A stretch of 64,000 bases of DNA from Escherichia coli (GTDB taxonomy: Bacteria > Pseudomonadota > Gammaproteobacteria > Enterobacterales > Enterobacteriaceae): NCBI RefSeq assembly GCF_045037415.1, contig NZ_CP173438.1; one strand, 5' to 3'. The position numbers are program-made. Positions 49,601 through 55,600 of the stretch are shown here, piece by piece. How positions within the stretch are numbered: position 1 is the first letter of the stretch; the number at the start of each line of letters is the position of its first letter.

Positions 49601-52600
49601 CTTATCAATTTTTTTCGTTATTCTTAAGCTCTTCTCATTATGAAAATTATACCTCCCAATCATTTTTCCTTTAATGAATAATAATCCGCCGCCACTTTTT
49701 TGTGTCCAGTCACTACTACCAGTTTCATCTATTTCTCTTCCTGCCCATATCTCTCCATTTTTTTCCAGACTACCCCATGTTGGGTATCCCTCTTGCAGCT
49801 TTCTTAACAAATGAACGGCATGAACACCTTGAGATACCGGAATGCTAAGATATTGAGAATCTATACTAGACAAATCAAAAAAACCTAGTGATTTAATATT
49901 TAAGTTTTTATCATACACACTAAGTTGAATATTATCATTAAGGGATTCACCTTTATTAAAAATAAAAGAACATGAAGAAACATCAGCACCGCCGAATAAT
50001 TTAGCCTCAGCTGGATAATAATTTATGCAATCAATCCTCCCTGAATTAAAAAACTTTTCACGTAATATGTACGATTGTTCATCTGCGAAAAAAGATGCAG
50101 GCATAACTATAGCTACCAATCCATTTTTATTACATATTTCTAAGCTAAGTTCTGCACCAACACGTGAAAGATTAGTCCCCCACCCAGCAAATTTACGCTT
50201 CGGCTGAGAATATGGCAATACTCTTGACAAATAATCATCAAACTCACGAAGAGAGTCTATATACATCGATTTCATAGATGGTTCAAAAAAATCGAGCTCT
50301 CTAGAATCTGGTTTTATATTCTCCCAAGGCGGATTGGTTATAACACAATCAAAATAATCAACATATTTTTTAAATTCATAAAAAACATCACTATTTTTTA
50401 TAGTAATGTTAATATTTGCACCTGCTAACTTAAGTTCAGACAACGCATTTTTAGCATAAGTGAGGCCTGTATTTTCTATATCGAACAGATAAACATTCCA
50501 CTCTACATCTGGAAAACCATTTATCATCCATTGTTTAATAAGCAATGTAATAAGTCGACCATCCCCTGAAAATGGATCTGCGACATTATAACTTTTTTTA
50601 TCACAGGAATTTATCAATGGTAATAACTTCTCTATCATCAAAAGAGCTATTTTTGGATCTGTATAGTATTTACCTGTCGCTTTTTTAGTGAATTTTGTTG
50701 TCTCGTCCAAGGACAGTGAATTAATTAAATGGATATGTTTCATGTAAAATATCTCTTCCATTAATAATATGGATTATATCATTTAACTTGTGAACACTCA
50801 ACAATAACTGTACATAAAAACAGTCATTAAAGATTTCCCCTAGAGTGAGCATCGCTATAAAAATTTAAATTAATTTTATCCTGCTCCGAAAGAAACAGTT
50901 ATCATTTATTCCATAAAGAATAACTTGCTTTATAATCACTTTAAATATCGATATCAATTTTAATACTATGGTTACTTACCATATCAATAAATAGCTTAAC
51001 CCGTTATCTCGATACCCCTTAAGAACCCCTTCCGCAACTGCAACATAATCTACGCTCATCCACATGCCTGGTGCGTATTACCGTGAAGGAGATCGGTGAG
51101 TTATTGAGTGATCTCCTTTCATGAAAATACGCACCTGGCTTTAACTGTTCCTGATATAAGTTGACAGTTTTCTGTCCGTAAAACGGTTGATGAACTTCAT
51201 CGGGCGTTTTGTATTTCAATGCCAAATGTGACCGCTCATGGTTATAAATTGCCACGAATTCTTTTACCATTTACCGGCCCTACGTCAGCTCTGCAGGACG
51301 CGAGAGTAAAAACTCATTTTCAGGATTCCGTTTATCCACTCAGCCTGCGCATTCTGGTGGCAGTTATAACCATTAGTCATTGAACAGGTTATTGATAAAT
51401 AATTAAAAAACTCAGTTTTCTGGCTCGCCTGCTCAAGCTGTTCTTCAAGTTCCCTGATTCTTTGCTCGGGTGTCAGCGGGACAGTCGCCAGAGCCACAGG
51501 CAGTCTCCTCTTTACCTGGTCAGGAAGTCCGGGGCTCCAGTCAAGCCGGCCATATTTACGCAACCAGACAAGAACGGTGGAGCGCCCCTGAATGCCATAA
51601 CTGCAGCCGGCCTGTTTATAAGTCATCTCGCCTTTTTCAACCTTCTCAACAACGGCTATTTTAAAGGATAGAGGATAATCACGTTGAGTGCGTTTGAACC
51701 CAGACATCATCACGTTCTCCGGGTTTAAGTCAGGAACGTGTCATAGCTATTCAGGACGGGTCACCGACACAAAAAAAGTCGCCCTTGAGCGACTCGATTT
51801 GCATACGGTATGGTGCTGCGTATTACCGTGAAGGAGATCGGTGAGTAACATCGATGGAGATCGGTTCGTGTCACTTTCACAGAACCGTTTTTAAATTACC
51901 TTCACTGATCTCCTTCGGTCAACGGAGATTGTATTTTCCGCATTGATTCTCCTTTAAGTTCGATCTTGATACTGCCATGAACCAGTCGATCTAGGATGGC
52001 ATCCGCATGTGTGGAGTCTCCGATCATTTTGTACCAGTTTTCCACCGGCAACTGGCTCACTACGATGATTGAGCCTCGTTGGTACATCAGATCCACTATT
52101 TCCAGCAGGTCGCTACGCTGTTCTGATGAGAGAGGTTCCAGCCCCCAGTCATCCAGAAGCAGCAGATCGCTATTATTCAGCCTGGTCAAAAGTTTGCTGT
52201 ATCTTCCATCAGCATGCCCCTGATAGCACTGTTCCATCAGCGCTTTAAGGCGATAATAGTAGACCTTGTATCCCTGTCGGCAGGCATTATGACCAAGTGC
52301 ACATGCCAGGAACGTTTTACCGCTGCCGGTGGCCCCGGTCAGTAAAATATTTTGTTTCAGGGTTAACCAGTTTCCCTGACTGAGTGAACGGATGAGGGCC
52401 CTGTCCAGCCCTCTATTGTTACGATAATCCAGCTTTGATAACTCAGCATTAAGTCTGAACCGTGCATGTTTGATCAGACGCTCTGCCTTCCTGTTTTCAC
52501 GGCAGGTTAGTTCTTCTGCTGTCAGTAATGACAGGCGTTCTTCGAAGCCCAGCTCCTGGTATGTGCCCGGTTGAGCAAGTTGCTTTTTAAGCGCATCACG

Positions 52601-55600
52601 GAAGCCGGTGAGTTTAAGTGCGGTCAGTTGTTCGTAAAGATGATTCATCATTGGATCCCGTATCAGTGGTAATACTCACTGCCGCGTACGTTTTCGTGTT
52701 CCATCGTGGATAACAGATCTGGTTTTGGATCCTGAACAGGTTGTTTATCCAGACCTTTTTCCAGGATCGATTTAATACCTGACAGACGCCATACCTTTGT
52801 TTTCAGAGCTCTTGCACATGCTGCATTAAGTCTGGCTTTACTGTATTTTTTATGAAGGTTCAGGAGTCCAAGGCAGAAGCGATAGCTTTGTTCCGGATGT
52901 GGACGAGAGTTCAGTATATGAAGCACATAACTATGAGTTTCACTGCCTATGTGCCCCGCCCATTCCAGAAGACGCTCTGGCGTCCAGGTGGCATGCTGTC
53001 GATGAGCTTCAGGCATGTGCTCGTTGCGGGTACTGTAGCCATAAGTACGCTTGCGCGGGTGCACAGCAACCTCCTGCCCCTGATTGAAGAGTCTTACCAG
53101 TTCTCCGGAGATCCATGCTTCCAGTTGCTGGCCTAACAGCGAACATGGAACCGAGTAGTAATGTTTGTCGATTTCCACGTGGTAATCGGCATGAACTCTG
53201 ACTTTCTTCACCAGGGTGTAACTGTAACTGGCTTCAGGAAGAGGCTTCAGTGCGGGTTTATCAAGCTGGATGAAGAGTTCTGCACGTGAATAACCCAACT
53301 TCTGCATTATTTTGTTATTCAGTCTTTCCAGCAACTCCCGAATGCGCTGATTAAGCGATGCAAGGCTGTAGAAGATCTCATGCCTGATTCGGGCCATGAT
53401 CCAGCGTTCAACAACCTGAACGCCAACTTCAGCTTTGGCTTTATCTTTCGGTTTACGTGGCCGCGCAGGCAAAACTGCGACATTATAATGCTCAAGCATC
53501 TGCTGGTAGGTAGGGTTAACGTCAGGATCATACTTACATGCCCTGGATGTGGCGCTTTTCAGATTGTCCGGAACAACAAGTTCAGGAACGCCACCCAACC
53601 ACTGGAAGCAGCGAACATGACTCATCACCCAGTCTTCAAGCTGCTGAGACCAGGTGGCCTCTGCCCATGTGTAACTTGATGCCCCGAGAACAGCTACGAT
53701 GACCTGAGCAGTTCTTATTTCTCCGGTCTCAGGGTCGGTAACGCCAACGGTAGGTCCACAGTAATCAACGAAAAGTTTTTCGCCAGCTTTATGTACCTGA
53801 CGCATTGATGGTGAAGTGGTTTTGAGCCATTCACGGTACATCCGGCAGTAATGGTTATAGCTGTAAAAACCGCCTGGATTACGCTCACAGTATTCTTCCC
53901 AGAGTAGCTGCAGCGTCACGCATTTATTACGCAGTTCCCGGTGTACTGTAGCCCAGTCAGGCAGAGAGTGCTTCTTCATCTTAACCTGGGTCTGAAGGAA
54001 CGCATGTTTTAGTTTTGTATCATCCCATCCTGTAGGTAAGGGCCACTGCTTTATGCCAAGTTGAGCCGCCCGATTAGCATATCTGGATACAACGGAAGGG
54101 GAGATTGCAAGACTACGACCAATTTGTCGATGGCTGAGTCCAACACCGTATTTAAGCCTAAGAATTTCTTTAAGTTTTCTCATAGAAATTGGAACTGTTG
54201 GCATAGGTATCCTTTACCGGAATGGCAAAAGATACAGATCAACACACCTGTGAAGTTCCAATAACATTGATGGAGATCACTGAATAACAAAATGAGTCAA
54301 AAGTGATCTCCATCGATGTTATTCAGCGATCTGTTCAAATGTTATTACCCGATCTCGATGGAAGTTATTGAGTGATCTCCTTTCATGAAAATACGCAGGT
54401 GCGAAGGCCGGACTCAAACATGCGATTTAACCTCATGATTTAAAATTGTTAATAATAAACAACACCATCCTATACCAACACAGATACCAACACGAAAAAT
54501 CACTGGTTTTCGGCATCGAACCAGGACAATCAGGTCCTGATTGAGATACCGAGCTCTGTTACTCGTCATCTTCCTCGACAGGCTCCATTGCATCAAGTGG
54601 TACTCGCACCATCGCGATAGAACCAATCCGGATAAAAGCATCTTCCCCATCTATATCGGTTAACTGATATCGCTTACTTGATGCCGGATAATTGTGTCGA
54701 TTGGCAACAGTGTACTCTTTCGTACAGCCAGAATGTGGCAGACTGAGGTGGAATAGATAACGTCCGTATGCCCGCTGACCACCTCCGGGCGGGAGAGTGT
54801 GGTATCTGACATCATCATTTTTCCTTTCTGTTTATAAATGAAAATGCCAGCCGTGTTCAGGCTGACGTCAGGGAAGTGAAATCGGGTGAGTGATCTTCAC
54901 TGGTTCTGGTACAAAAGTTACTGTTGGCGCAGGGTACGGATACCCTCCCTGGCCTGTGCGATACAGGGCAACAGTGCTGCCGAATCTGTTTTATCCTCAT
55001 CGTTGTCGAAGATAATTCCCGATTCGCAGTCGATATTGTCCTGCAGCCACGTAATCAGAATATCCAGCGCTGTTTCCGTGGTTAATGATTTCATGTTGTG
55101 AATTTCCGGATTACCAGTCGAAAGTGGGTAAACCCGGCAGATATCCGGCACTGGCATCCAGATGAATGAGACTGACACCATAACACCGGATGAGTGTGAC
55201 GACCAGACGACGGAACGTTTTTGACAGCCCCAGGCGCTTAAGCCGCAGAACCGGGTATGACCACGTATCGGTACGTAACAGATAACCGGTACCGGTAAAA
55301 TGAATCCATTCTGATTCACCGAAGTCACTGGTCTGGTGTGACAGCGAGTACAGCCAGGCGTTGTCCGTTTCCGTGATATGTGCGGTACTGCAGCGTATGC
55401 CGGTAAGGGCAACAAATGGTGGCGTGCAGTCTGCTGAGGTCCGGTCAGATTCATCAACAACACGAAGGGAGTAGCCGTTATCGCAGACCATGTTAATCAG
55501 TTCAGCGAGATTAACACCATCAATGTCAACGACAATGCGCCCCATGTTCAGCGCCTGCACGTTAACGCTGTCGGCTTCCAGCGTCAGGGCCAGTTTCATC

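Follow-up and report, generated by a model that had tools for sequence, protein, structure and literature searches.

A simple ISEc12 insertion into a leuX-like repeat marks an island boundary in Escherichia coli sequence type 131

Did the insertion sequence (IS) that lies between the restriction genes and the CP4-like module of an Escherichia coli chromosome create this junction, or did it enter a boundary that was already there? We addressed this question for a stretch of 64,000 nucleotides (nt) of E. coli DNA (NCBI RefSeq assembly GCF_045037415.1, contig NZ_CP173438.1), in the following referred to as the window, in which an IS21-family element had been predicted to be a recent simple insertion. 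We are highly confident that this element is a complete copy of ISEc12, which entered by one simple transposition into an attR-like repeat derived from the tRNA gene leuX, and that it represents a probably neutral lineage marker.

The original prediction of a 2581-bp IS21-family element at 51817–54397, bordered by clean GGTGC direct repeats of 5 bp, proved exact in every coordinate, and perfect copies of GGTGC were found abutting both ends:

51812–51816, no strand: target-site duplication, left copy, GGTGC; single copy in empty-site genomes
51817–54397, minus strand: complete ISEc12 (IS21 family), 2581 bp, with TG...CA tips; 100% match to RefSeq-annotated copies
54398–54402, no strand: target-site duplication, right copy, GGTGC; single copy in empty-site genomes

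With the 5' tip TGCGTATT at 51817 and the 3' tip AATACGCA at 54397, the element has the TG...CA termini typical of the IS21 family; the terminal 8 nt of both ends form a perfect inverted repeat (8/8) and the 17-nt arm is 82% complementary. As the genes are ordered on the minus strand, the istA-proximal (left) end is located at 54397 and the istB-proximal (right) end at 51817. A match of 5 bp at fixed positions has a chance of about 1/1024, and a duplication of 5 bp falls within the short range of 4–8 bp characteristic of the family. Tandem or junction forms of ISEc12 are absent from the window.

For reconstruction of the empty site, the IS and one GGTGC were removed and 400 nt of each flank were joined. 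The resulting 800-nt query was found uninterrupted, with a single GGTGC and at 100% identity, in JJ1887, JJ2434, MNCRE44, Nissle 1917, ATCC 25922 and others, which is the outcome of the check that had been proposed along with the prediction; altogether, 534 complete E. coli genomes cover at least 80% of it. Direct alignment showed JJ1887 to be collinear with the window, the IS and 5 bp being the sole absence. Of 5426 complete E. coli genomes, 62 contain the left junction in its occupied state. The empty site at full identity and the exact difference to JJ1887 thus establish one simple ISEc12 insertion that is polymorphic within clade C of sequence type 131 (ST131). The predicted simplicity of the event is borne out by the empty site; its recency holds only in a relative sense for an insertion common to 62 complete genomes. 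A different origin would be an IS-mediated rearrangement, by recombination between two copies or by adjacent deletion, in which the IS fused the restriction island to the CP4-like module, and the position of the IS exactly at the module boundary as well as the association of other ISs of the window with disrupted genes would fit such a scenario. However, the 5-bp duplication is perfect, the same flanks meet without interruption in hundreds of genomes, including the non-ST131 B2 strains Nissle 1917 and ATCC 25922, and the leuX-derived repeat at the boundary predates the IS. We therefore regard a joining of the flanks by the IS as ruled out by the empty site in relatives, with a residual probability that is practically negligible.

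Which sequence, then, did the element enter? The target is TATGGTGCGAAGG, of which GGTGC was duplicated on entry of ISEc12. Read on the minus strand, the empty site consists of GTTTGAGTCCGGCCTTCGCACCA, after which come a hairpin and a T-run. Of the 24 nt at the 3' end of JJ1887 leuX (tRNA-Leu), 22 are matched by this site, and the similarity runs on into the leuX terminator:

51776–51795, minus strand: terminator-like hairpin with T-run, homologous to the leuX terminator, directly downstream of the istB end
54403–54419, minus strand: major portion of a degenerate direct repeat that corresponds to the leuX 3' end; the IS splits this repeat, whose remainder, TGGTGC, lies at 51811–51816

No tRNA genes were found in the window, and the leuX match becomes apparent only once the IS is removed. 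The leuX-like repeat has the same orientation as leuX, from which it is separated by about 56 kb, and the interval between them contains an integrase pseudogene, the fec operon and CP4-like genes (GTPase, Ag43/cah, antirestriction, RadC, YeeU/CbtA). Beyond the repeat follow an IS3-family remnant (51019–51760), an Eco31I-family type II restriction-modification system and McrBC. Judged by its sequence, the target is the attR-like distal boundary of a leuX-associated island module with CP4-like genes (yeeU/cbtA, antirestriction, Ag43). ISEc12 consequently marks the junction between restriction/McrBC genes and CP4-like genes, which is older than the IS and was not made by it. The claim that the IS separates a defence island from the CP4-like module is correct with respect to position, whereas the true boundary is the older leuX-derived repeat; moreover, the IS3-family remnant also lies between this repeat and the restriction genes. 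By its entry, ISEc12 cut the acceptor-end GCACC of the leuX-derived remnant. No functional gene was interrupted, and the insertion is probably neutral, because only a remnant att repeat was cut, and in the relative JJ1887 the integrase of this island is a pseudogene already.

The identity of the element follows from direct comparison. By ISfinder convention, copies are regarded as the same IS above an identity of about 95% in protein or 90% in DNA, and all 2581 nt of the window element are 100% identical to RefSeq E. coli copies annotated as “IS21-like element ISEc12 family”. The NCBI Prokaryotic Genome Annotation Pipeline (PGAP) also uses the name ISEc12 for the IstA (WP_001298859.1) and IstB (WP_001016257.1) proteins. 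By this comparison the window element is the already catalogued ISEc12, from which nothing detectably sets it apart. Strain EC958 carries an identical copy, and the insertion in its tssM gene, with the 5-bp duplication ACTGC, has been called ISEc12 and described as clade-defining for ST131 clade C (PMC10711316). ISEc12 occurs in 1908 of the 5426 complete E. coli genomes, at a median of three places per positive genome, and in 978 mostly conjugative plasmids (Escherichia 739, Shigella 127, Klebsiella 95). A 48-nt query from the istB end, searched against one genome per species, gave three matches, i.e., a 546-bp contig of Escherichia albertii and two contigs of a metagenome-assembled genome labelled Collinsella, which we suspect to be contaminating enterobacterial DNA.

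Both genes of the element, predicted to be intact, were recovered as two uninterrupted open reading frames (ORFs) passing curated IS21-family models:

51902–52651, minus strand: istB, AAA+ helper ATPase, 249 amino acids (aa) from the first ATG; NF038214, Pfam IstB_IS21, Walker motifs (the RefSeq start is one codon downstream, at 52648)
52663–54204, minus strand: istA, DDE transposase, 513 aa; NF033546, Pfam rve and Mu-transpos_C_2, DDE triad

They follow each other on the same strand in the order istA–istB with 11 nt between them and occupy the element. IstA scores 310.5 bits against NCBIfam NF033546 (“IS21 family transposase”, cut-off 160), carries the Pfam domains rve and Mu-transpos_C_2 (Mu transposase C-terminal) and is thus a DDE transposase of the IS21 type, which is characterised by an N-terminal helix-turn-helix, an rve core and a Mu-like beta-barrel. 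In a pairwise alignment its residues D147/D213/E259 fall on D124/D187/E233 of IS5376 IstA (PDB 8B4H/8Q4D), a catalytic triad verified by experiment (PMC10122671). IstB scores 270 bits against NF038214 (“IS21-like element helper ATPase IstB”, cut-off 200) and 227.5 bits against Pfam IstB_IS21 (PF01695), as expected for the AAA+ helper; it contains the Walker A motif GATGSGKT (residues 106–113) and the Walker B motif DD (167–168) and resembles the IS5376 IstB structures 8Q3W/5BQ5 end to end (E=1.7e-27). With these features, the window copy looks transposition-competent.

The multipartite terminal repeats of the prediction were resolved into eight units of 23–27 nt with the consensus ACATnGAnGGAGATCnnTnAATAACAT (aligned on a GATC core), which are distributed over both ends, as is typical of the IS21 family, and represent putative transposase-binding units:

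51817–51922, minus strand: istB-proximal terminal region with the terminal inverted repeat, two direct units and one inverted unit
54259–54397, minus strand: istA-proximal terminal region with the terminal inverted repeat, four direct units and one inverted unit

At the istA end the direct units are spaced exactly 23 bp apart (GATC at 54374, 54351, 54328 and 54305), and the inverted unit (GATC at 54275) forms with the innermost direct unit a 22-nt palindrome, 95% complementary, upstream of the istA start. The direct units of the istB end are likewise 23 bp apart (GATC at 51836 and 51859), with the inverted unit at 51907. Six of the twelve GGAGATC matches of the 64-kb window fall within the roughly 245 bp that make up the two ends. 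All eight units have GATC, the site of Dam methylation, at their core. Methylation-dependent control of the ends is known for some other ISs, and the core GATC sites would allow such control of end binding here. The copy of strain E20 at the same site has an extra 23-bp unit, i.e., three instead of two direct units at the istB end (equivalent to 51833; locus L023), which may mean that the number of transposase-binding units truly varies, or may have arisen as an artefact of assembly. Read off the sequence, ends abutted with a 2–3-bp spacer would yield TTCACG-N16/17-TATTTT, which, speculatively, resembles the junction promoter of IS21 tandems.

A further question is whether the element is still active and how it chooses its targets. 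Six other ISEc12 copies at four distinct sites are flanked by 5-bp duplications, namely AATGC in a Houston ST131 strain and AAACG, CCTGG, GTCAG and CCAGG in plasmids, and 5 bp is thus the usual stagger of ISEc12. A target consensus ending in GC, apparent from the first four sites, was abolished by the plasmid sites AAACG, CCTGG, GTCAG and CCAGG. In genomes with identical flanks, five ISEc12 sites lie between window positions 51218 and 56617:

51218–51222: same orientation as the window copy, AATGC, Houston ST131 strain
51812–51816: window copy, GGTGC
54739–54743: inverted relative to the window copy, CAGAC and one extra base at the istB-end junction, Ecol_732
54814–54821: inverted relative to the window copy, 8-bp duplication ATCATTTT, CD306
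56614–56617: same orientation as the window copy, TCAG and one extra base at the istB-end junction, EC958

Three of them depart from a clean 5-bp duplication, with 4 bp in EC958 and 5 bp in Ecol_732, each together with the extra base, and 8 bp in CD306 (L026). The extra A:T base pair at the istB-proximal tip was seen in two independent insertions (EC958, L003 8934; Ecol_732, L025 7023). Comparison of the GC content revealed no common base composition at the five clustered sites. The cluster may reflect a regional preference or simply a pseudogene stretch in which insertions survive. ISEc12 copies are identical or one single-nucleotide polymorphism (SNP) apart and occupy several distinct sites among near-identical genomes. 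The recurrence of identical copies at numerous sites, together with no fewer than five independent insertions within 5.4 kb, indicates that ISEc12 has been mobile recently. The same observations bear on the view that the window copy is an inactive relic, intact in appearance only. Damaged copies do exist, e.g., in strain 98212, whose istA has two compensating indels, or in E20 with its additional 23-bp end unit. Nevertheless, the window copy retains both ORFs at full length, including the catalytic and ATPase motifs, and the identical copies at different sites, as well as the independent insertions among near-identical genomes, speak for recent mobility of the element, so that we consider a relic very unlikely.

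How the insertion spread within ST131 was approached with three markers, i.e., SNP 47950, ISEc12 at the leuX repeat and the ISEc52-family insertion at 45518, which were scored at loci L001–L004, L016–L018 and L021–L023. All compared genomes share the clade C hallmarks, i.e., the same FimH protein and a fimB gene interrupted by an ISL3-family element. Five types were distinguished:

type a: SNP 47950 C, ISEc12 absent, ISEc52-family insertion absent; JJ1887, EC958 and a Houston strain
type b: SNP 47950 C, ISEc12 present, ISEc52-family insertion absent; 98212 and 2023CK-01341
type c: SNP 47950 T, ISEc12 present, ISEc52-family insertion absent; THO-003
type d: SNP 47950 T, ISEc12 present, ISEc52-family insertion present; window, p4A and E20
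type e: SNP 47950 T, ISEc12 absent, ISEc52-family insertion present; AZ146, A1.S1.126 and 2024CK-00184

Small-genome occupied strains were also considered as another sequence type, which would have meant an independent insertion; they share FimH and the fimB insertion with ST131 clade C. Local SNPs in the 35–47 kb flank of THO-003 and AZ146 gave zero or one differences, too few for an ordering of the events.

Nothing speaks against the identification as ISEc12; three points limit the account of an intact element that was inserted once and then inherited. Its occupancy is incongruent with the two markers, which are 3.9 and 6.3 kb away; its transposition competence is deduced from the intact sequence alone; and its name derives from RefSeq annotation and one paper (PMC10711316), not from an ISfinder reference. 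The marker incongruence demands at least one extra event, be it recombinational replacement, precise loss or repeated insertion. The most parsimonious path, from a via b, c and d to e, needs one exact loss of ISEc12 in type e, whereas any other order would require the identical site to have been hit again at least twice. On this most parsimonious ordering, the ISEc12 insertion is older than SNP 47950 and the ISEc52-family insertion at 45518–46767, and the loss in type e could be a recombinational replacement or a true precise excision.

Alternatively, the leuX-repeat site could be a preferred ISEc12 target that was hit repeatedly, so that the window copy would not share a single origin with the insertions of all 62 occupied genomes. 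In favour of this view, ISEc12 is found alongside both alleles of SNP 47950, irrespective of whether the ISEc52-family insertion at 45518 is there, and all remaining marker combinations exist as well; the view would also agree with the clustering of five sites within 5.4 kb and with the target choice by DNA shape reported for IstB (PMC11208146). However, a single loss in three genomes already accounts for all five types, while under repeated gain ISEc12 would have had to enter at the identical base pair, in unchanged orientation, on two or more additional occasions, and the duplications found elsewhere lack a sequence consensus. An insertion in opposite orientation at the same 5 bp was not found in the 5426 genomes, the two matches obtained being other sites 340–420 bp away. 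The clustering, in turn, may reflect a pseudogene stretch tolerant of insertions. Finally, the leuX–fim region is a known recombination region in ST131, which makes replacement the simpler explanation. We therefore consider repeated hits unlikely and prefer a single insertion followed by one loss. That the leuX repeat with its 5-kb surroundings is a real ISEc12 hot spot in ST131, or that ISEc12 is lost precisely from this site, appears to us slightly less probable still; either would account for the conflict with markers 4–6 kb away and for the five clustered insertions and, if true, would point to structure-based target choice of IstB in vivo or to a so far unrecognised precise excision in the IS21 family.

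Apart from ISEc12, the window harbours several IS3-family elements. An intact element of 1250 bp at 45518–46767, flanked by the 3-bp duplication ATT, interrupts the gene of an Eco31I/Alw26I-family type II restriction endonuclease; it bears the RefSeq label ISEc52 family, had been labelled IS911 in the prediction, and is inserted in 17 of the 5426 genomes. The cognate methyltransferase genes (47938–49128 and 49121–50743) are both intact. A second, identical copy at 16323–19843 exists in two pieces (16323–17084 and 19356–19843) and had been taken for a rearranged IS911 copy; in fact, it is split by a group II intron of 2271 bp at 17085–19355 (Rfam Intron_gpII match at 19269–19355). The reverse transcriptase/maturase of the intron is divided into two ORFs by a 1-nt difference near 18364 compared to strain 2024CK-00184, and the intron is absent from THO-003 and AZ146. 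The remnant at 51019–51760, which separates the leuX-like terminator from the restriction-modification genes, consists of an OrfA-like N-terminal fragment (51285–51713) and a C-terminal transposase fragment (51019–51270); the ISEc12 insertion of the Houston strain (locus L004) lies inside it.

As a catalogued IS and an event of a known kind, the insertion is of little general biological import. The spread of ISEc12 in the pandemic ST131 is documented; in clade C it inactivated tssM, a type VI secretion gene. In this context, the leuX-repeat insertion is of use as a marker that identifies an ST131 sublineage by its presence or absence (62 of the 5426 complete genomes) and as a worked example of a module boundary that is older than its IS. 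At the same time, it calls for caution, as IS presence or absence near leuX–fim can conflict with adjacent markers.

What remains is the comparison with known systems, from which the likely course of the insertion is also taken. The following steps derive from the literature on the IS21 family (PMC10122671; PMC11208146) and not from ISEc12 itself. Tetramers of IstA would bind the repeated 23-bp units of both ends and synapse them, which would expose the 3' CA for cleavage by IstA. ATP-bound IstB decamers on the target DNA would bend it and subsequently recruit and activate IstA, and strand transfer with a stagger of 5 bp followed by gap repair would leave the 5-bp duplication. What is visible in the sequence itself are the conserved motifs, the end architecture and the 5-bp duplications. 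Among ISEc12 copies, the window element shares the distribution of the others, i.e., chromosomes of Escherichia and Shigella and F-type plasmids of Escherichia, Shigella and Klebsiella, and its 5-bp duplication matches that of tssM::ISEc12; the leuX-repeat site alone is specific to the 62-genome subset. The structurally characterised IS5376 of Geobacillus stearothermophilus (cryo-EM; 8B4H, 8Q4D, 8Q3W, 5BQ5) resembles ISEc12 in its two-gene layout, the aligned DDE residues, the full-length match of IstB, the ends made of repeated units and the 3'-terminal CA. Its proteins are, however, distant (IstA, E=3e-13), and the ISEc12 IstA of 513 aa has a longer C-terminal region compared to about 400 aa in IS5376. 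Likewise, ISEc12 has 4+1 and 2+1 units, whereas the multi-site ends of IS5376 are termed L1/L2 and R1/R2 (PMC10122671). ISEc12 also differs in sequence and length (2581 bp) from IS21 and IS100. IS21 of plasmid R68.45, the prototype of the family, and IS100 of Yersinia have lengths of about 2.1 kb and about 1.95 kb, respectively. Both feature an istA-istB operon, multiple terminal repeats and duplications of 4–8 bp, and both transpose via abutted ends that form a junction promoter.

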